Positions 1 to 45,211 of a stretch of DNA of 51,487 nt are shown one piece after another. The notes beneath the pieces were generated by a model. It saw nothing but the letters and a program-made list of their open reading frames with translations. It did no database searches and was not told the origin of the DNA. The translations under genes were made by a program, and so were the position numbers. Positions within the stretch are counted from its first letter, which is position 1. Each line of letters begins with the position of its first letter. This stretch comes from an uncultured Bacteroidales bacterium (lineage in GTDB: Bacteria > Bacteroidota > Bacteroidia > Bacteroidales > ML635J-15). The stretch spans positions 53,020 to 104,506 of the forward strand of contig CAZBPT010000001.1 of assembly GCA_964493875.1 (NCBI GenBank), given 5' to 3'.

Positions 1-363
1 AATATGCTTTGCGATATTTTTTGCTTGTTCAATATTTTTTCCGGCTTTGGAATCGCTTTGCATACTATAAGAATTATCTATATAGATTGCTGTAACGGAA
101 ATTTGTTTGTTTTGACTTTTATCATTAGGAATATAAGGACCGGCAAAAGCAATCACCAACATTGCAATTATTAAAATTCTTGAAATAAGAATAAGTAAGT
201 TCTTTAATATATTTATTCTTTGACTTTGTTTTTTTATATTTTTTAGGAATTCGTTATTACTAAAATATACAAGTTTATGTCTTCTGAAATTTATTAAATG
301 AATAATTATTGGTATAGATACAGCAAAGAATGCCCATAGAAAATTAGGATTAACAAAATTCAT
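1..363 (-). CDS. BatA-like protein with N-terminal double-transmembrane domain (5' part only; gene runs off the left edge)
   Basis: Absent from the ORF track because there is no stop in the window. A reverse-strand ATG at 363..361 opens MNFVNPNFLWAFFAVSIPIIIHLINFRRHK...IIAMLVIAFAGPYIP...VTAIYIDNSYSMQ. The frame stays open to position 1 (121 codons). This is a typical BatA/aerotolerance-type N-terminus. Confidence 0.6.
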   Translation of the reverse strand, partial: MNFVNPNFLWAFFAVSIPIIIHLINFRRHKLVYFSNNEFLKNIKKQSQRINILKNLLILISRILIIAMLVIAFAGPYIPNDKSQNKQISVTAIYIDNSYSMQSDSKAGKNIEQAKNIAKHI

Positions 364-495
364 AATAAAATTTCTGCAAATTTAGTATAAGTTTTTCAAA
401 AATCAAATTTTGTTTTACTTCATAAAGAGATAAATGATGCTGATAAATTAATGAGAAAAAAGGAAAAAACAAATAAAAGTTTTTGTTAAAAATAT

Positions 496-503
496 TATCT
501 TTG
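496..503 (+). promoter_or_regulatory. putative Bacteroidota -7 promoter box (TAnnTTTG) for alaS
   Basis: TATCTTTG lies 16 nt upstream of the alaS ATG at 519. Confidence 0.4.
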
Positions 504-518
504 CAAGAAAATATATAA

Positions 519-1346
519 ATGGAATCAAAAGAGATAAGACAGCGATTTAAAGATTTTTTTGAGCGTAATGGGCATAAAATTGTTCCAAGTGACAGCATGA
601 TAATAAAGGGCGACCCTACATTAATGTTCACAAATGCGGGAATGAACCAATTTAAAGATATTTTTTTAGGAATACGCAAAGCCGACACGCTACGAATTGC
701 AGATTCACAAAAGTGTCTAAGGGTTTCAGGCAAACACAACGATTTGGAAGAAGTTGGGCACGACACTTATCATCACACCATGTTTGAGATGCTTGGAAAT
801 TGGTCTTTTGGTGATTATTTTAAGGAAGAAGCTATTCGCTTGGCATGGGAATTGCTCACAGAAGAGTTTGAAATCGACAAAGATCGTTTATATGTTACAG
901 TTTTTGGTGGAGACCAATCAGAAAAATTAGAGATAGACATAGAAGCTGAAAATATTTGGAAAAAATATCTAAGTAAAGACCGTATTATCTATGGTTCAAA
1001 AAAGGATAATTTTTGGGAAATGGGAGATTTGGGTCCTTGTGGTCCGTGCAGTGAGATTCACGTTGATATTAGAGACGAAAAAGAACGTAATGAAATCCCT
1101 GGGGTCTCGCTTGTAAATAATGACCACCCACAAGTTATAGAAATTTGGAATCTTGTATTCATTCAATACAACAGAAAAGCTGATGGCAGTTTGGAATTAT
1201 TACCCGCAAAACACGTAGATACAGGAATGGGATTTGAAAGACTTTGTGCTGTTTTACAAAATAAAAAATCTAATTATGACACTGATGTTTTTCAAACTAT
1301 TATTAAAGAAATTGAAAAAATTACCAATTTAAAATATTCCCGTTAA
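519..1346 (+). CDS. alaS: alanine--tRNA ligase, N-terminal fragment (class II catalytic core, 275 aa)
   Basis: Contains [46 protein letters not shown] and [14 protein letters not shown] (motif 3). Ends ...NLKYSR with TAA at 1344, and further in-frame TAA codons follow at 1374 and 1377. Confidence 0.9.
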
Positions 1347-1398
1347 TATATTTTTAATCACTCTATAAATAACTAATAAAACAAAGAATTTCAAAACA

Positions 1399-3198
1399 AT
1401 GAACAAAAAAGAAGAAAATATAAATATAGCAATGCGAGTGATATCGGATCATCTTCGTGCCGTAGCTTTTGCCATTGCCGATGGGCAATTACCATCAAAT
1501 GTTAAAGCTGGTTATGTTATCCGTAGAATTTTAAGACGTGCCGTTCGATATTATTATTCGTTTTTGGATATGAAAGAACCTATGATTTACAAATTAGTAG
1601 ATACATTAGTAAAACAAATGGGAGATGATTATCCGGAATTAAAAAGACAACAAAAATTAATAGAAAATGTTATTCGCGAAGAAGAATTATCTTTTTTAAA
1701 AACTCTTGAAAAAGGAATAAAATTATTAGATAACATTATAAAAAAAGGAGATAAGGTAATTTCCGGCACAGATGCTTTTGTTTTGTACGACACTTACGGA
1801 TTTCCTCTAGATTTAACCGAACTCATTGCAAAAGAAAACGGCATTAGCGTTGATACAGAAGCATTTGATTCGGAAATGCAAAAGCAAAAAGAAAGAGCTC
1901 GCAGTGCTGCTGAAAAAGAAACTGAAGATTGGACAATTATAAATGAAGGAAGCACTATTTTTTTAGGTTATGACACTTATAGCTGTGAAATTAAAATCAA
2001 TAAATACAGAGCTATAAAACAAAACAACAAAAAATATTATCATTTAGTTTTTGATAAAACTCCTTTCTATTCAGAATCAGGAGGTCAGGTTGGTGACACC
2101 GGTATAATAAAAAATATCAATGAAGAAATTGCTATTGAAAATACAATAAAAGAACACAATCAAATTATTCATGTTAGCAGTAAATTACCGACAAATTTAG
2201 AAGGTAGCTTTGAAGCCATTGTTGATATTGAAAAACAAAAATCATCCGCAAGAAATCACAGCGCCACTCACCTATTACATTTAGGATTAAGAAATATTTT
2301 AGGCACACATGTAGAACAAAAAGGTTCTTTGGTTGACAGCAGTAAATTAAGATTTGATTTTTCACATTTCAATAAATTGACAGAACAAGAAATCAGAGAA
2401 GTTGAATTATTTGTTAATTCGTTAATAATTAAAAATATAAAGAGAGAGGAATGTAGAGAAATTCCAATTTCGGAAGCAAAAGAAAAAGGAGCGATGATGC
2501 TTTTTGGTGAAAAATATGGCGACAAGGTACGTCTTATTGAATTTGGAGAATCAAAAGAATTATGTGGAGGAATCCATGTGGTTTCGACAGGAGAAATAGG
2601 TTTTTTCAAAATCGTTTCCGAAGGAGCAATCGCAGCCGGAATTCGTAGAATTGAAGCAGTTACTGGAATAAATTCTCAAGTAGAAATTTTTAATTCTTTT
2701 GATACAATTAAAGAAATATCTTCAATATTAAATAATCCAAAAGATATTTTGGAATCTATTAATAAGATTAACACTGAAAACCACGAATTAAGAAAGCAAA
2801 TTGAAGTTTATCATGCAGAAGAAATTAAAGAAATAAAAAATTCTCTATTGCAGAAAGCAGAAAAAAAAGATAATATTTCGATTATCGTAGCAGAAGTTAA
2901 AGTAAATAATGCAAATGATATCAAAGAAATATGTTCGCAAATTCGTGCACAGCTAAATGATTTTGCAGTTTGTCTAGCAGCAAATATCGACGGCAAAGCA
3001 TTTTTAGCATTAGCCTTTTCTGAAAATCTAGTATCAGAAAAGAAATTTGATGCCGGCAAATTGATTCGTGAGATAGCAAAAAACATTGAAGGCAGCGGAG
3101 GAGGACAAGCATTTATTGCTACTGCCGGAGGTAAGAATCCAAACGGAATAGGAAAAGCTTTGGAATTTGCAAAAGACTTATTTAATAAATCATTGTAA
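1399..3198 (+). CDS. alaS: alanine--tRNA ligase, C-terminal fragment (tRNA-recognition, editing and C-Ala domains, 599 aa)
   Basis: Starts MNKKEENINIAMRVISDHLRAVAFAIADGQLPSN, which is where a one-piece AlaRS continues. Carries the editing motifs HSATHLLH and CGGIHV and the C-terminal GSGGGQAFIATAGG. It is in a different frame from 519..1346. Confidence 0.9.
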   Translation: MNKKEENINIAMRVISDHLRAVAFAIADGQLPSNVKAGYVIRRILRRAVRYYYSFLDMKEPMIYKLVDTLVKQMGDDYPELKRQQKLIENVIREEELSFLKTLEKGIKLLDNIIKKGDKVISGTDAFVLYDTYGFPLDLTELIAKENGISVDTEAFDSEMQKQKERARSAAEKETEDWTIINEGSTIFLGYDTYSCEIKINKYRAIKQNNKKYYHLVFDKTPFYSESGGQVGDTGIIKNINEEIAIENTIKEHNQIIHVSSKLPTNLEGSFEAIVDIEKQKSSARNHSATHLLHLGLRNILGTHVEQKGSLVDSSKLRFDFSHFNKLTEQEIREVELFVNSLIIKNIKREECREIPISEAKEKGAMMLFGEKYGDKVRLIEFGESKELCGGIHVVSTGEIGFFKIVSEGAIAAGIRRIEAVTGINSQVEIFNSFDTIKEISSILNNPKDILESINKINTENHELRKQIEVYHAEEIKEIKNSLLQKAEKKDNISIIVAEVKVNNANDIKEICSQIRAQLNDFAVCLAANIDGKAFLALAFSENLVSEKKFDAGKLIREIAKNIEGSGGGQAFIATAGGKNPNGIGKALEFAKDLFNKSL

Positions 3199-3216
3199 GT
3201 CATTCTAATATTTAGT

Positions 3217-3251
3217 CCCGCAGGAATAAGTCTCTGCGGGATTTTTTTTTT
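3217..3251 (+). terminator. rho-independent terminator after alaS
   Basis: CCCGCAG (3217-3223) pairs with CTGCGGG (3234-3240) and is followed by a run of about 10 T. Confidence 0.75.
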
Positions 3252-3273
3252 GATTTTGTATCCAGAAGCTTAG

Positions 3274-3290
3274 TTGTTGTCACGGTTTTT
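3274..3290 (+). repeat. 17-mer TTGTTGTCACGGTTTTT, copy 1 (inverted copy at 28429..28445)
   Basis: Exact 17/17 match to the reverse complement of 28429..28445. Both copies lie in spacers between convergent genes. Confidence 0.6.
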
Positions 3291-3435
3291 GCATAGAGCA
3301 ACATCAAACCAGATATTCATCGGGAATATAAAGCAAAAACACGCGCCAACAAATATTTTTACGTTTTATCAAAAAAATATTTGTAAAAAAATTGAATTGT
3401 ATTTCTAATGAGAAAGATGAATTTTCGATAAATTA

Positions 3436-5865
3436 CTAATCTTTATTCACTACAGTAAAATATCGGGAAACGGAAATTCCTTTATTATCCACTATTGTCA
3501 AAAGATATTTTCCAGAGTTCAGTTTTACAGATATTTCATGAATTTCTTCAGTAGTATTAACATAAGCACCATCGATATACCAGAAAATTTTAGCATTATT
3601 ATCTTGATGAGCAACTTTAAAAACGGCAGATAAAGTATCTCCATAAGAATTTACAGGAATATATACGCGAGTATTAAGATTTGGATAAATAATGTCCATT
3701 ACCGAAGAGCTTGAAATATTATCATTGCAACCATCCAAAAAAGGAGGAAGTACAGAATAAGAAGGATTTTTCATTTTATAATAATATTCCATTGAAGGAG
3801 AAAGGACAAAACAAGATTTTCGGTGAATTTTTTCTATAGGATAACAATCGGAATTTACAAGATAAGATTCTGTTTCATCAAAATTATAGCAATGATGATA
3901 AGGACAATTTGGAGATTTTATAGCTGTATTCGACACATAAACCGTATCCACAGTATCACAGTCTGTAGAAGCGATATATCCGCTTTTTGCACAAATCGCC
4001 AAGGGAGTTGTATTGTCATAAGGGAAATCAAACCATTTATCATAATCAGGAAAAACATTTAGAATTTCAAAGAGTACAGGTGCTGCAACTTTCTGTCCTA
4101 TGATATCGGATTTTGGCTCCCCTGTAGCGTTTCCCACCCATACGGCAACAACATATTTTGGATTGATAGCAACAGCCCATGCATCTTTAAAGCCAAAACT
4201 TGTTCCTGTTTTCCAAGCCACTTGTTGTTTTGAAGAAAAACTTCGCCAATTTTTTTCATCGCCAGGCCTGTTTAACTCTGTCATCGCTAAAAATGTATAA
4301 TAAATTGAAACAGCATTAAGAAGATTTTCGTCCTTTTCTTTATTATCTCTTTTATCGGAATTTAATAAATAATGAGCAGGGAAATAAGCATCCGATAAAT
4401 ATTTTGCTTCGTTAGAATTATAATAATTAAGACTTCTCGCCATCGAAGCATAAGCAGAGGAAATTTCCCATAAATTTGATTCCGCTCCACCTAAAATAAG
4501 TGACAATCCGTAATAATCAGAACTCTTATCTATTGATTTCAAACCTAAATATCTCAATACAGACAAAAATTTATAAACATCATATTGTTTTAGCAAATGC
4601 ACAAAAGGAATATTCAGCGATCTCACAAGAGCCTCATCGGCAGGCACAGCACCATCATTTTGTTTATCAAAATTTTCGGGTGAAAAATCTGCAATTTTTG
4701 TGGGAGTGTCTCTCAGTAATGTTTTTGGTAAAATAATTCCGTCAGAAAGAGCAGCAGCATATAAAAAAGGTTTTAAAATACTTCCTGTGCTCCTATTTGA
4801 TAAAATCATATCAATATCTTTTTCCTTTGTATCGGAATCAAATGCGGCATTGCCAACATATACAAGAACTTCCCCTGAATTTACATCCAAAACGATACAA
4901 GCAATATTATTGATTCCATTTTGTTTATACAAACTATTATATTGATCAATGATTTTATTTGCAAGTTCTTGATATTTAAAATCTATTGTAGATAAGAATA
5001 CATTGTTGGAATTTTTGTTTTCTTTTAATATTCGTTCAACAAGATGGTATGCAGATGTTGGATAAGGTAAAGGATGTTGAGGAATTTCTTCTTCAATCGA
5101 CAATTGATAATCATCTTCAGATAGAATATTCTTTTCATAAAGCATCTTCAATAATTTATCGCGTTTTGCCTTTAATTTTTCTCGATTTTTTGCCGTATTT
5201 ATATTTGTGGGATCATTTGGAAGAACAGCAAGCATGGCATTTTCTGCCCAAGAAAGATTATATTGTGAACGACCGAAATATCGCCAAGAAGCGGCATCGA
5301 TGCCAACAATGTTTCCACCAAAAGGTGCATGAGAAGCGTATAATTTTAATATTGATTCTTTTGAATAAGTACATTCCAAGCGTATTGCCAAGAGAGACTC
5401 AATAATCTTTTCGTAAAAACTTCGTTTTTTGTTATTTCTCATTAACCTTATTGTCTGCATTGTAATTGTAGATGCGCCACTAACAATTTTTGAAGATTTT
5501 ATGTTCTGTTTTGTTGCTCTTATTATTGATAAAGGGTCTACTCCAAGATGATAATAGAAACGCTTATCTTCAAAGCAAACAATGCAGGTTTTGAACTTTT
5601 CATTCACGGAATCTGTTTCCGGAAATCGCCACTGCTTGTCATCGGATATTTTTACGCCGAGTAATTCCCCGTTTTTATCCACAACCACACAGGAATAAGA
5701 AACATTGAACAAGGGATTTGGTAAAATGAAAATAAATAATAAGATTAAAGATATTGAAAATAATAGAATTGCAGAATAAATGATTTTCTTTTTTAAAGAT
5801 AAAGCAAGAATAGATTTATAAAAATCAAAGAATTTTTGAGAAATTATCTTTAATATTTTTTTCAT
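3436..5865 (-). CDS. pbpC: penicillin-binding protein 1C (bifunctional transglycosylase/transpeptidase)
   Basis: 809 aa with an N-terminal TM helix, the GT51 motifs EDKRFYYHLGVDP and GASTITMQ, the transpeptidase motif STGSILKP, and a long C-terminal PBP1C-type beta domain. Confidence 0.85.
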   Translation of the reverse strand: MKKILKIISQKFFDFYKSILALSLKKKIIYSAILLFSISLILLFIFILPNPLFNVSYSCVVVDKNGELLGVKISDDKQWRFPETDSVNEKFKTCIVCFEDKRFYYHLGVDPLSIIRATKQNIKSSKIVSGASTITMQTIRLMRNNKKRSFYEKIIESLLAIRLECTYSKESILKLYASHAPFGGNIVGIDAASWRYFGRSQYNLSWAENAMLAVLPNDPTNINTAKNREKLKAKRDKLLKMLYEKNILSEDDYQLSIEEEIPQHPLPYPTSAYHLVERILKENKNSNNVFLSTIDFKYQELANKIIDQYNSLYKQNGINNIACIVLDVNSGEVLVYVGNAAFDSDTKEKDIDMILSNRSTGSILKPFLYAAALSDGIILPKTLLRDTPTKIADFSPENFDKQNDGAVPADEALVRSLNIPFVHLLKQYDVYKFLSVLRYLGLKSIDKSSDYYGLSLILGGAESNLWEISSAYASMARSLNYYNSNEAKYLSDAYFPAHYLLNSDKRDNKEKDENLLNAVSIYYTFLAMTELNRPGDEKNWRSFSSKQQVAWKTGTSFGFKDAWAVAINPKYVVAVWVGNATGEPKSDIIGQKVAAPVLFEILNVFPDYDKWFDFPYDNTTPLAICAKSGYIASTDCDTVDTVYVSNTAIKSPNCPYHHCYNFDETESYLVNSDCYPIEKIHRKSCFVLSPSMEYYYKMKNPSYSVLPPFLDGCNDNISSSSVMDIIYPNLNTRVYIPVNSYGDTLSAVFKVAHQDNNAKIFWYIDGAYVNTTEEIHEISVKLNSGKYLLTIVDNKGISVSRYFTVVNKD

Positions 5866-21947: not shown

Positions 21948-22004
21948 CTAATTTTTAGATAATTATTACATTTTTTCTGATTTTTGTTATTCAATAAAAA
22001 TGTT

Positions 22005-22012
22005 TATATTTG
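22005..22012 (+). promoter_or_regulatory. putative -7 box (TATATTTG) for pgk
   Basis: Lies 20 nt upstream of the ATG at 22032. Its position argues against the TTG start at 21984 used by the ORF track. Confidence 0.4.
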
Positions 22013-22031
22013 TAAATATAAAAATTATATA

Positions 22032-23228
22032 ATGATTTCAATAGATAATTACGATTTTAAAAACAAAAAAGTATTATTAAGAGTAGATTTTAATGTTCCT
22101 ATTATTGGCAATTGGGAAGAGTATGATTTCACAAGAATAAAACTATCCGTTCCAATAATTTTAAAAATTTTAACAGACGGTGGCTCTGTAATATTGCTCT
22201 CTCACTGGGGTCAGCCATTAGGAAAAGTTGAAGAAAGTCGCTCTTTCAAAAAAATTCTTCCCCATATTGAAAGAATTCTCAATGTGAAGAAAATATTTTT
22301 TTGTGAAAATCCTTTCGACCGTAAAACTGCTGAAACAGCAAAAAAATTAAAAAGCGGAGAAATTCTATTGTTGGAAAATCTAAGATTTTTTCCTGAAGAG
22401 ATAACAGAAAATGAAGAATTCGCACAATTATTAGCTTCTTTTGGAAATTGTTATGTAAACGATGCTTTCGGAGCATCTCACAGAGTTCATACCTCTACTG
22501 TTACTCTTCCAAAATATTTTCCATACGATAAAATGCTTGGCTACTCTTTTGAAAAAGAAATTACAAAACTCGACAACTTAATTATTGATAACAATAAAGT
22601 TCCTTTCACACTTCTAATTGGTGGAAATAAAATATCATCAAAAATTGGCGTTATAGAAGCCTTAATTACCAAAATCGACAATCTACTAATTGGTGGAGCT
22701 CTGGCATTCCCATTTTTAGCTGTATATGGCAATAAAACAGGAAATATTACTATTGAAAAGAAACATATCGAAACAGCAAAACGGATAATGAATTTAGCAA
22801 ATAAACACAATGTAAAAATTCACTTGCCAATAGATTTTGTTATCTCTGATGTTATTAGCGAAGATGGTAGTATTAGTCATTGCGAAAAGAGCGAAATTCC
22901 TAATGGTTGGTCGGCTCTTGACATCGGAATTAAAACAATTGAAAATTTTGTTGATGTCATTTCAAACTCAAAAACTCTTCTCTGGGACGGCCCAATGGGA
23001 ATGTATGAAATTCCAAATTTCTCATACGGTACTTTAAAAATTGCATTGTCAATTGGACGACTCACCGACAAAGGACTATTTTCAGTAGTTGGCGGCGGGG
23101 ACACTATCGCAGCGTTAAACAAATACAGCATCTCACACAAAATGTCGTATATAAGTTCCGCAGGTGGTGCTTTGCTAGAATACCTCGAAAAAAATTCTCT
23201 TCCTGCTATTGAGGCAATAAAAAAATCT
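22032..23228 (+). other. PGK unit 1 (divergent copy, 399 aa)
   Basis: SHWGQP replaces SHLGRP, YDFTRI replaces DDTRI, GGALAFPF replaces GGG..YTF, and WDGPMGMYE replaces WNGP.GVFE. Confidence 0.8.
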
Positions 23229-24422
23229 TTCGACATTGATAGTTACGACTTCAAAAACAAGAAAGCAATTATTCGTGTTGATTTTAATGTTCCTCTTGAC
23301 GAAAATTTCAATGTAGTTGATGATACCAGAATTATTACAGCCTCTCCTTCAATAAGAAAAATATTAACAGACGGAGGCTCTGTAATTTTAATAACCCACT
23401 TGGGAAGACCAAAAGGCAAATATGACGAAAAGTTGTCTGTTAAACATATTGTTTCTCATCTATCTCAACGATTAGGACAAGAAGTAAAATTTTCCGGAGA
23501 AATTATTGGTAAGAATACGACAAAAATGGCAAAAGAGTTGAAACCGGGTGAAATTATGATATTGGAAAATGTTCGCTTCGACCCTCGTGAAACTGAGAAT
23601 AACGAAGAATTTGCAAAAGAACTAGCCCAATTAGGAGATGTTTACATTATGAACGCCTTTGGAACTGCTCACCGTGCACATGCCTCTACTTATAATATCG
23701 CTAAATTCTTTCCAAAAGATAAAATGCTCGGATATTTAGTAGAAAGTGAAATAAATAGTATAAACAAAATTCTTCAAAGAGCCGAAAAACCGTTCACTGC
23801 TATTATTGGCGGTTCTAAAATATCCACTAAAATTAATATCATTAAAGCTTTAATTAAAAAAGTCGATTGTCTTATTATCGGTGGCGGGATAAGCTATACT
23901 TTTATTAAAGCCATGGGAGGCAGTATTGGCGACTCTCTTTTTGAAGAAGATTTCATTAAAACTGCTGAAGAAATTATTGAAGAAGCTAACAGATGCGGAG
24001 TAAAATTAATCCTACCTATAGATTGCATTATTGCGAATAAATTTGATAATAACGCCGATATCAAAATTTCTAAAATCACTCAAATTCCTGACGGCTGGCA
24101 AAGTTTAGACATAGGAATCAAAACATCTGAACTTTTTACAAAAATCATTGAAAATTCTAAAACAATTTTATGGAATGGACCTGTAGGAGTTTTTGAAATG
24201 GAACACTTCTGCAACGGAACTATAAAAATTGCATTGGCAGTTTCAAGAGCTACGGCAAAAGGTGCTTACTCTGTTGTTGGTGGTGGTGATAGCATTGCTG
24301 CTCTTAATAAATATAATTTGGCAGATTCTATCAGTTTTATATCAACTGCAGGTGGTGCTTTATTGGAATATATTGAAAATGGAGACCTGCCAAGCATTAA
24401 AGCTATTAGAACAAATATATAA
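22032..24422 (+). CDS. pgk: tandem phosphoglycerate kinase fusion (PGK-PGK, about 796 aa)
   Basis: One continuous frame holds two complete PGK units. RVDFNVP, ENLRF/ENVRF, NDAFG..HR / NAFGTAHRAH, GG.KIS.KI, W.GP.G..E, GGGD.IAA and AGGALLEY each occur twice. Confidence 0.9.
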   Translation: MISIDNYDFKNKKVLLRVDFNVPIIGNWEEYDFTRIKLSVPIILKILTDGGSVILLSHWGQPLGKVEESRSFKKILPHIERILNVKKIFFCENPFDRKTAETAKKLKSGEILLLENLRFFPEEITENEEFAQLLASFGNCYVNDAFGASHRVHTSTVTLPKYFPYDKMLGYSFEKEITKLDNLIIDNNKVPFTLLIGGNKISSKIGVIEALITKIDNLLIGGALAFPFLAVYGNKTGNITIEKKHIETAKRIMNLANKHNVKIHLPIDFVISDVISEDGSISHCEKSEIPNGWSALDIGIKTIENFVDVISNSKTLLWDGPMGMYEIPNFSYGTLKIALSIGRLTDKGLFSVVGGGDTIAALNKYSISHKMSYISSAGGALLEYLEKNSLPAIEAIKKSFDIDSYDFKNKKAIIRVDFNVPLDENFNVVDDTRIITASPSIRKILTDGGSVILITHLGRPKGKYDEKLSVKHIVSHLSQRLGQEVKFSGEIIGKNTTKMAKELKPGEIMILENVRFDPRETENNEEFAKELAQLGDVYIMNAFGTAHRAHASTYNIAKFFPKDKMLGYLVESEINSINKILQRAEKPFTAIIGGSKISTKINIIKALIKKVDCLIIGGGISYTFIKAMGGSIGDSLFEEDFIKTAEEIIEEANRCGVKLILPIDCIIANKFDNNADIKISKITQIPDGWQSLDIGIKTSELFTKIIENSKTILWNGPVGVFEMEHFCNGTIKIALAVSRATAKGAYSVVGGGDSIAALNKYNLADSISFISTAGGALLEYIENGDLPSIKAIRTNI
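23229..24422 (+). other. PGK unit 2 (canonical copy, 397 aa plus stop)
   Basis: Begins FDIDSYDFKNKKAIIRVDFNVPLDENFNVVDDTRI with no linker and no Met. Retains THLGRPKG, NAFGTAHRAHAS, GGGISYTF and WNGPVGVFE. Confidence 0.85.
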
Positions 24423-43921: not shown

Positions 43922-45211
43922 TTAACGAAGATTTTTTTTATGGACAATTTTTTGATGAACAAAAGATAATGCTCGACTTATCTTTTCCCAATCTGTTAAA
44001 TAGTATAAAGCAAAAAAAACTGAAAGAATCGACACTACCTGTATTCTGTACATAAACCAATAATGCAAATAAACGGCATTAGGCAATAAAATGTAATATA
44101 AATATGGAGCTATTCCAATTAATAATAAAATAACTGCCAGTTTAATTCCTTTTTTTCTAAAGAAGAATGCAGAAAGTAGTACCAATACTGAAAGTATAAC
44201 AGAAATGAAAGTAAGAGATAAACCCATAAAGTTTCTATCTATACTGTCTAATATCGTGATTTTTTCTTCACCAACATTTTGACTCGCCCTCATTGTCATA
44301 GCATATAAAGCTTCTCCAAAACTATCATAATCGGTGAATATCGCTGTAAGTCCCCACTTTGCAACCCAAGACAATAAGAAAGAAAAACACCACAAAATAG
44401 AAAACAATGCAATATTTTTAAATAGTTCTTTGAAACTACTCTTATTATATAATACTAAATATGTAATTAAAGGAATTCCTAAAGATGCTACAGGTACAGT
44501 ATTGAAATCCAAATACTGAGTCAAAGCACCAAAAACAAAAAATAGCATTGGCAACATTTTAGATTTGTTTTCAGGAATTAGAAGTATGAGAATTGAAAGA
44601 AAAAAAGCAACATCAAAACCTATACTAAGTTGCATGCTAAATTGCGTTGTAAAAAAATTTATTGCTAATAACGAGAACAAAAATAAGAAAGAGACTTTCA
44701 TTTCGGTTTTTTTATACAACAGTAAAAGCAATGATAATAATAAAAAAGAAGAAATTGCCCAATAAAACCAACGAATTGAATAATAATTTCCAAAACCCAA
44801 TAAAAATCGTTGAATAAAGGTATTACCATTCCAATATCTTGAATGATTTTGCTCAAAACCTGTAGATTTACCTGCAACTAAATCATTTATATCTTCATAG
44901 CGAAAAAAATTTCCTCGCTTCCAAAATGGGCATAGCAAAGCAGATTCTATAGGCTTGTCTCGATTTATTAAATAATTTTTTTCGAGTAAAACAATCTCGG
45001 CAAAACTATCAAAAGCATAATATTTCTGATCATATATTATATGTTCCGAAAGATCCTCTTTTTCTCTTTCAAACATTGGAATAGATTTAATAATATTTTG
45101 TTGAATTCGCCAATTAGGCAAAAGACATGCTAATACCGAAAAAGAAAAAAACAATGCTATTAAAGCAATAAACACTATAAAATATTTCAAAAATAATCTG
45201 ACAATTCTCAT
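43922..45211 (-). CDS. uncharacterised polytopic membrane protein (about 10 TM helices, one large N-proximal loop)
   Basis: 429 aa. An N-terminal TM helix is followed by a roughly 110-aa soluble loop and then a dense run of hydrophobic helices. I recognise no family motif. Confidence 0.55.
   Translation of the reverse strand: MRIVRLFLKYFIVFIALIALFFSFSVLACLLPNWRIQQNIIKSIPMFEREKEDLSEHIIYDQKYYAFDSFAEIVLLEKNYLINRDKPIESALLCPFWKRGNFFRYEDINDLVAGKSTGFEQNHSRYWNGNTFIQRFLLGFGNYYSIRWFYWAISSFLLLSLLLLLYKKTEMKVSFLFLFSLLAINFFTTQFSMQLSIGFDVAFFLSILILLIPENKSKMLPMLFFVFGALTQYLDFNTVPVASLGIPLITYLVLYNKSSFKELFKNIALFSILWCFSFLLSWVAKWGLTAIFTDYDSFGEALYAMTMRASQNVGEEKITILDSIDRNFMGLSLTFISVILSVLVLLSAFFFRKKGIKLAVILLLIGIAPYLYYILLPNAVYLHYWFMYRIQVVSILSVFFALYYLTDWEKISRALSFVHQKIVHKKNLR

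Follow-up and report, generated by a model that had tools for sequence, protein, structure and literature searches.

Can a bacterial alanyl-tRNA synthetase (AlaRS) be made as two separate polypeptides, or does an alaS gene that lies in two pieces simply mark a gene that has been broken? The question is raised by a stretch of 51,487 nucleotides from an uncultured Bacteroidales bacterium (contig CAZBPT010000001.1, positions 53,020 to 104,506; the window in what follows), in which alaS occupies two neighboring open reading frames (ORFs). AlaRS has been described as the sole synthetase with the same four-domain, single-chain architecture throughout biology, the Nanoarchaeota being the only split exception (PMC10036535, PMC8887476). 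Our analysis indicates that the window probably encodes a functional two-subunit AlaRS from a genuine and conserved two-gene alaS, laid out as follows:

519..1346, + strand: alaS-alpha (ORF1), 275 aa, of the 32 kDa class, with its TAA stop at 1344-1346
1347..1398, + strand: intergenic spacer of 52 nt with 8 G/C (~15% G+C) and no stable RNA structure
1399..3198, + strand: alaS-beta (ORF2), 599 aa, of the 68 kDa class

The two ORFs and their different reading frames (519 mod 3 = 0; 1399 mod 3 = 1) are as given in the initial annotation of this DNA, and the A/T-rich nature of the spacer and its additional TAA codons at 1374 and 1377 were borne out as well. Stops around the spacer occur in frame 0 (1344, 1374 and 1377), frame 1 (1330 and 1366) and frame 2 (1355 and 1370); as all three frames are closed and the frame changes between the halves, no single indel or frameshift rejoins the ORFs of the window. 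The earlier statement that a single indel cannot reunite the halves therefore holds for the window but not for its sister sequence L001, whose two frames overlap.

The first matter to settle is whether the split is real. That it is a sequencing or assembly artefact of a gene that is in truth continuous is a suspicion encouraged by two other loci (L008 and L179), where apparent splits at the same loop are one-base frameshifts beside short homopolymers in Flye-style contigs. An indel error, however, cannot produce a 52-nt spacer with stops in every frame. Furthermore, proteins identical to ORF1 and ORF2 are encoded on independently assembled contigs from at least 11 sequencing runs, and the 160 nt around the junction are base-identical to the window in all 10 of the 10 loci retrieved (independent Logan assemblies from three run series). 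Some of the runs with the identical junction are metagenomes of digestate from full-scale biogas plants (PRJNA533495; PMC7842101). The same junction in 10 independent assemblies of different runs rules out the assembly error that had been named at the outset as the point to exclude, and we give an artefact practically no credence.

Do the two ORFs together make up a whole AlaRS? The Pfam profile PF01411 is covered from position 1 to 262 by ORF1 (E = 5e-111) and from 263 to 540 by ORF2, with neither gap nor overlap, and ORF2 additionally contains the domains tRNA_SAD (PF07973, the editing-domain signature) and DHHA1 (PF02272, C-Ala). ORF1 also matches residues 4-271 of the E. coli AlaRS 3HXU with E = 1e-84. 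Together the halves measure 874 aa, against 872-877 aa in the closest one-piece homologues, and the alignment to these shows about 4 residues gained, namely the R that ends ORF1 and the MNK that opens ORF2, and none lost. The earlier view that no domain is missing and that the combined size is about that of a one-piece enzyme thus agrees with the profile and the lengths. ORF1 ends one residue beyond the usual ...KYG, and ORF2, which starts MNKKEENINIAMRV, puts MNK without counterpart in one-piece enzymes ahead of the usual ...E-K-T-D-I-A-L-R-V segment. The resulting new termini are ...ITNLKYSR (R275) at the C-terminus of ORF1 and (M)NKKEENINIAMR at the N-terminus of ORF2. A split intein or trans-splicing was considered and rejected, as the halves have the one-piece length plus about 4 residues and their Pfam domains are those of AlaRS only. 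The functional elements located in the two products are:

ORF1 aa 37-42: FTNAGM, class II core
ORF1 aa 236-242: motif 3, GMGFERL
ORF1 aa 256-269: helix after motif 3
1498..1500, + strand: codon of ORF2 Asn34, aligned with Archaeoglobus fulgidus N359 (equated with E. coli N303), the U70 reader
1789..1791, + strand: codon of ORF2 Asp131, aligned with A. fulgidus D450 (equated with E. coli D400), the G3 reader
2257..2271, + strand: editing-site HxxxH (HSATH), ORF2 aa 287-291
2563..2577, + strand: editing-site CxxxH (CGGIH), ORF2 aa 389-393
3091..3108, + strand: C-Ala glycine motif GSGGGQ, ORF2 aa 565-570

The roles of the Asn and the Asp in reading the G3:U70 pair of tRNA-Ala are taken from PMC10036535, and the glycines of GSGGGQ are invariant in an alignment of 32 sequences. 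All of the AlaRS hallmarks tested are recognizable in the pair: the class II core with motif 3, the G3:U70-reading Asn and Asp, the editing site and C-Ala. Alpha and beta together would be predicted to charge tRNA-Ala in a G3:U70-dependent manner. Since both residues that read G3:U70 lie in ORF2, alpha comprises the catalytic core only, and every tRNA-reading element resides in beta. Scans of the window found no tRNA genes and no Rfam families.

The position of the break is informative in itself. Residues 3-270 of ORF1 align with residues 4-271 of E. coli AlaRS and residues 9-171 of ORF2 with residues 277-439, which places the break at about E. coli 271|277, in a loop joining two helices. Compared with the 5 residues of the E. 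coli structure, the corresponding loop of the human enzyme is longer (13 residues). An AlphaFold2 model built on the concatenated alpha and beta sequences, an artificial fusion, consists here of a helix (256-269), a coil (270-277) and a second helix (278-302), and its per-residue confidence (pLDDT) dips at the junction. The cut thus falls in a length-variable loop one helix past motif 3. The split had been placed exactly at the boundary between the catalytic core and the tRNA-recognition region; it is near that boundary, but one helix (aa 256-269) inside the tRNA-recognition region.

The locus is not a decaying one. A sister lineage found in seven further runs (L001-L007) carries ORFs of 275 and 601 aa whose stop and start fall at the same alignment positions, followed by the same PBP1C gene downstream. 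The comparison of close relatives that had been proposed for this locus therefore recovers the same break, while the spacer length is not conserved (25 nt in the sister lineage vs 52 nt in the window). Protein identity between the window and L001 is 88% for alpha, 77% for beta and 81% overall. The ratio of nonsynonymous to synonymous divergence (dN/dS; Nei-Gojobori) is 0.039 for alpha, where dS is ~2.1 and saturated, and 0.124 for beta, at a dS of 1.13. The columns that are at least 98% invariant among 110 one-piece Bacteroidota AlaRS homologues are kept at 276 of 279 positions in the window protein and at 271 of 279 in L001, and alpha retains all 121 such columns of the N-half. The mean identity to distant homologues is equal for the window protein and its nearest unsplit relatives, so that no acceleration of the rate is seen. 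Strong purifying selection acts on both halves, and the split is conserved.

These observations bear directly on the possibility that alaS is a recently inactivated pseudogene, with an intact paralogue elsewhere supplying AlaRS activity. The gene is essential, a stop codon together with a frame change resembles a disrupted gene, and, with 51 kb of genome at hand, a second intact alaS elsewhere is possible. Against this, the same break is kept in a lineage separated by a dS above 1, the dN/dS values and the retained invariant columns are those described above, and the start codon and A-rich leader of ORF2 are conserved across the lineages despite a 27-nt difference in spacer length. The other genes of the window also give full-length domain matches, and the region is therefore unlike a decaying genome. 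Between the two options left standing by the initial annotation, a functional two-piece AlaRS or a freshly inactivated gene, our data favor the former, and we consider inactivation very unlikely.

Two substitutions at otherwise invariant columns were seen in ORF2. N9 (1423..1425) replaces an Asp beside the new N-terminus in both the window and the sister lineage (group A), and also in group B, a second, phylogenetically separate group of Bacteroidales in which alaS is broken at the same loop. Q280 (2236..2238) replaces an Arg just upstream of the editing HxxxH in both lineages of group A. These changes may have arisen as adaptations to the split, or they may be markers of the clade.

Editing homologues of AlaRS are also known as free-standing proteins, and a further explanation is that each ORF is functional without the two combining into one enzyme. 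Beta would then be an AlaX-type factor that binds and edits tRNA-Ala, alpha would activate alanine for some other acceptor, and a canonical alaS would be located elsewhere. The arrangement in group B lends this some weight, as alpha can sit apart from beta there (L184 and L181) and co-expression is not enforced everywhere. However, beta retains the residues that read the acceptor stem, alpha retains every one of the invariant N-half columns, and the two pieces sum exactly to one AlaRS. Moreover, alaS serves as a single-copy marker (PMC11740963), and a one-piece alaS copy was absent from each split contig examined. We regard separate functions as improbable, though less so than inactivation.

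How would the second half be expressed? The signals found around the two genes are:

496..503, + strand: promoter-like Bacteroidetes -7 motif TATCTTTG (TAnnTTTG), 15 nt upstream of the ORF1 start
1379-1398, + strand: A-rich translation initiation region of ORF2, the last ~20 nt of the spacer
3214..3253, + strand: intrinsic-terminator-like hairpin (11 bp, 6 G-C) with T run, 16 nt past the ORF2 stop

The 20 nt before the ATG of ORF2 have A at -3, -6 and -12 and are 65% A, compared with 43 +/- 10% for 37 other window genes, and the folding energy of the region from -30 to +30 is -0.5 kcal/mol, compared with -4.1 +/- 2.4 for the other window genes. In Flavobacterium johnsoniae, an A-rich, unstructured leader with A at such positions raises initiation; neither its ribosomes nor those of other Bacteroidia make use of Shine-Dalgarno pairing (PMC6847099). 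Between the window and L001, the last ~16 nt of the spacer are conserved and the 5' part differs by a 27-nt indel. The initial suggestion of a spacer that brings in a new ATG together with an A-rich initiation region is thus well matched by a leader that is rich in A and nearly unstructured. The motif at 496..503 is the sole + strand match to TAnnTTTG within 496-2205, so none precedes ORF2, and the hairpin at 3214..3253 is the sole terminator-like site in 300..3500. A single promoter-like motif before ORF1 and a single terminator after ORF2 fit a bicistronic unit, and alpha and beta most likely form one such transcription unit; TAnnTTTG is not significantly enriched across the window, and the promoter evidence is weak.

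The same junction was examined for recoding, in which ribosomes would frameshift or hop over the 52-nt gap, as in gene 60 of phage T4, and produce a one-piece protein. The length of the gap is near the 50 nt of gene 60, and in L001 the last sense codon, AAT, reappears as codon 2 of ORF2, whose frame is open back into ORF1. This overlap is not conserved in the window, where no landing codon matches CGT, the last sense codon, and stops block every frame. The junction also forms no stable hairpin (-1.8 kcal/mol, z = +0.7), and the gap varies by 27 nt between lineages while the ATG and leader stay conserved. Group B has gaps of 213 nt or, with a gene inside, 1.37 kb, or else its halves are unlinked altogether. 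With no landing codon, no open-frame overlap and no stable hairpin in the window, bypassing or frameshifting of the gene 60 type was rejected, and we hold recoding to be highly unlikely.

We therefore return to the two-subunit enzyme as the preferred explanation. Fission of alaS would have produced two adjacent, co-directional genes, most likely in one transcription unit. Alpha, the catalytic core, would activate alanine, and beta would recognize and proofread tRNA-Ala by means of its G3:U70-reading Asn and Asp, its editing site and C-Ala. ORF2 would be translated from its own start through an A-rich, unstructured leader of the Bacteroidia type, independently of Shine-Dalgarno pairing. The two polypeptides would then associate non-covalently and rebuild the normal AlaRS. 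The break lies in a surface loop whose two flanking helices pack against each other in the one-piece enzyme. Co-transcription, the physical association of the subunits and the role of the pair as the cell's sole AlaRS are what we infer from this arrangement. Besides the room that the rest of the genome leaves for a second alaS, several points weigh against this proposal. The two-subunit enzyme is here a prediction from its genes, and the promoter and terminator assignments are consensus matches only. The AlphaFold2 model is of moderate confidence (mean pLDDT 77.6; predicted template modeling score, pTM, 0.50) and, being an artificial fusion, carries no information on subunit affinity. Finally, a passage in PMC11392972 cites E. 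coli N-terminal fragments of fewer than 442 residues as being without tRNA charging; activity here would therefore depend entirely on the predicted association of alpha with beta.

Is the window the only such case? A contig scan with ORF1 retrieved 80 Bacteroidota genome loci, and alaS is in one piece across the break in all of them except L055, which has a frameshift, and L020, L036, L049, L060 and L068, whose ORFs break off at a contig end or are otherwise too short for judging. The closest of the 80 loci, L009, has 78% identity in its best tblastn segment. In a search of 5.8 billion proteins with ORF2, only the clusters of the window and L001 are ~600 aa long; the next matches, at 67% identity or less, are nearly all one-piece proteins of 872-894 aa, with a few shorter entries that look partial. 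A metagenome contig scan with ORF2 gave no match closer than 59% identity and no added split relatives, and in an exhaustive search of representatives with ORF1 the short matches were fragments or frameshifted entries and revealed no new split groups. Group B was found by inspecting the C-termini of short N-half matches, and the split is thus not unique to the window organism.

Group B differs internally in what lies between the halves. In L182 and L183, an alpha of 275 aa is followed by a 213-nt spacer with a TACCTTTG motif and by a beta that starts MNSKELQSEQINIAMRV. In L180 and L185, alpha is followed by a 438-aa methyltransferase-HNH ORF, an A-rich spacer (35 nt in L180, 33 nt in L185) and beta, which starts MNSKEIQQEQINIAMRV or MDSKEIQQ.... 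The alpha of L181 (3001..3831) precedes a gene resembling an outer-membrane beta-barrel and another unrelated ORF, and that of L184 (1500..2324) is followed by a convergent membrane-protein gene, with beta not adjacent. In group B the halves can thus be transcribed as separate units or lie unlinked, as they do in Nanoarchaeum. Their dN/dS values are 0.05-0.08 for alpha and 0.06 for beta.

Two candidates, both of which appeared as ORFs of 276 and ~600 aa, were removed from the list of splits. L008 (~5810..5835; the same contig as L055) contains a one-base frameshift and reads through as ...GKYDIIDIAMRV; L179 (~3815..3850) contains a one-base frameshift likewise and reads through as ...EYGKNEKWDIALRV. 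Both lie beside short homopolymer runs and are probably long-read errors, the contig names (contig_NNNNN) being of the Flye style. Frameshifts of this type are easily mistaken for true splits.

How are the two groups related? In a neighbor-joining tree of the N-half (30 junction-proximal columns masked, 200 bootstraps, six split sequences), the six split sequences are monophyletic in 0 of 200 bootstraps. In 200/200 bootstraps the window and L001 cluster with P0123, P0124 and P0138, which are in one piece, and exclude group B; in all 200 as well, group B clusters with L012, L017 and L031, again in one piece, and excludes the window clade. Both split groups nevertheless have in common IIKEIEKIT before the stop, an MN-x-KE start and then E-x-I-N-IAMRV, where their one-piece kin read ...K-T-D-IALRV or ...K-K-D-IAMRV, the Asp that is otherwise invariant being Asn in the splits. 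Two origins would account for this: one permissive loop that was cut on two occasions, with convergent adjustments, or a short junction cassette that passed from one alaS gene to another. Sliding identity near the junction displays a modest local shift toward the other split group over ~50 residues, which is suggestive but not decisive for co-conversion, and the many synonymous differences in the flanking DNA mean that any transfer of the junction would be old.

The gene between the halves in part of group B adds to this question:

L180, 3845..5161, and L185, 382..1698: methyltransferase-HNH ORF, 438 aa, exactly between the alaS halves

It consists of an N6/N4 DNA methyltransferase (aa 25-322) and an HNH endonuclease (aa ~350-425), and the two copies, from two contigs of one metagenome, are 94% identical with a dN/dS of 0.08. 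Homologues with 67-80% identity occur in Fibrobacteria, Planctomycetaceae, Ignavibacteria, Helicobacteraceae and termite-gut Bacteroidia, and such identity across several phyla suggests mobility. A role as a general gene splitter is unsupported as a rule, because the 80% homologue in a Fibrobacteria genome (L186, 4001..6828) lies in ordinary intergenic DNA, beside a methyltransferase and MvaI/BcnI restriction pair. The methyltransferase-HNH gene may instead have come as cargo into a gap that was already there, without having caused the split. The L186 homologue is also directly upstream of a complete class II aminoacyl-tRNA synthetase gene (Pfam tRNA_anti-codon and tRNA-synt_2, LysRS-like, probably lysS), which is maybe a coincidence. 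We tentatively entertain, as a doubtful scenario, that the break is a recurring or laterally spreading fission junction, in which a stop-spacer-start cassette recombined between alaS genes and methyltransferase-HNH genes perhaps seeded or helped the process. If such transfer did take place, the 52-nt spacer of the window would be its scar.

One similarity within L182 was noted separately. The start of its alpha (84..104; TATG ACT TCA AAA GAA ATT C) and that of its beta (1124..1144; TATG AAC TCA AAA GAA CTT C) match at 17 of 20 nt, encoding MTSKEI and MNSKEL. The match has a shuffle p of ~0.05-0.1, no extended similarity upstream and no equivalent in the window; an origin of the beta start as a duplicate of the promoter and start region of alpha is too weak to claim from L182.

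A bacterial synthetase that consists of two polypeptides assembling into an active enzyme is known in the alpha-beta leucyl-tRNA synthetase (LeuRS) of Aquifex aeolicus. That enzyme differs in being class I, in its fold and break point and in having genes that do not lie side by side. For AlaRS, the literature searched describes split forms in the Nanoarchaeota only and none in bacteria (PMC11392972, PMC10036535, PMC8887476), as the initial annotation, which was aware of no bacterial case, had supposed. The nanoarchaeal enzyme, like that of the window, is a natural two-gene AlaRS with an alpha catalytic core and a beta carrying editing and C-Ala, and in Nanoarchaeum equitans both subunits are required for efficient, G3:U70-specific charging (PMC11392972, PMC10036535). 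Its cut, however, falls within the tRNA-recognition domain, near E. coli residue 368 (PMC11392972), compared with 271|277 in the window, so that in Nanoarchaeota the U70-reading Asn is in alpha and the G3-reading Asp in beta, whereas both are in beta here. The archaeal genes are half a chromosome apart, in contrast to the 52 nt on one strand that separate the bacterial ones. By break position and gene linkage the window therefore falls outside the Nanoarchaeota type, and what appears to be new, judged from the genes, is a bacterial split AlaRS cut at a position other than that of the Nanoarchaeota.

Closer to home, the bacterial glycyl-tRNA synthetase (GlyRS; glyQ/glyS, alpha2beta2) resembles the window pair in being class II with a small catalytic alpha and a large tRNA-binding beta. 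GlyRS alpha resembles the AlaRS core and part of GlyRS beta superposes on AlaRS Mid1 (PMC8464048, PMC4938167); a fused (alpha-beta)2 GlyRS also exists, so both states occur in that family (PMC10164559). By Pfam (PF01411, PF07973, PF02272), though, the window pair is AlaRS and not GlyQ/GlyS, and its beta has the editing domain and the C-Ala domain of AlaRS where GlyS has HD and B1-B2 domains. The likeness to GlyRS is best described as functional analogy, not family membership. Another parallel is nrdA of Aeromonas phage Aeh1, which was split by the homing endonuclease mobE into NrdA-a and NrdA-b that are active by non-covalent assembly (PMC3045599). As in the window, an essential enzyme gene lies in two ORFs; Aeh1 has short new tails at the break (PMC3045599), compared with ~4 new residues here. 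An endonuclease ORF of the Aeh1 kind lies in the alaS gap of L180 and L185 only and the 52-nt gap of the window contains no ORF, which sets the window apart from fission of the nrdA/mobE type. The polyphyletic split state and the similar junction peptides of both groups are no more than indirect hints of endonuclease homing or of a spread of the split.

Elsewhere in the window, a single ORF of 812 codons (21984..24422, + strand) encodes a tandem of two complete phosphoglycerate kinase units (Pfam PGK, 2 stretches, 878 bits). Its likely start is an ATG near 22032 (MISIDNYDF...), and its halves have 50% identity over 394 aa with no stop between them, the first unit being the more divergent; such a pgk-pgk fusion is unusual. 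No Pfam match at E <= 1e-5 was obtained for an ORF of 429 aa (43922..45211, - strand) that is flanked by the genes for enolase and an HhH-GPD glycosylase.

Split copies of alaS, which serves as a single-copy marker in phylogenetics, are thrown out as artefacts (PMC11740963). Annotation pipelines will probably call such halves partial genes or pseudogenes. The cut described here parts a bare catalytic core from every tRNA-reading element, and it is kept under strong purifying selection and found in a second clade too. The pair would thus provide a natural system for asking how a class II core docks onto a tRNA-recognition module and whether the core alone is active. It may equally serve as a natural system for the origin of the alpha/beta layout in bacterial GlyRS, the closest relative of AlaRS.

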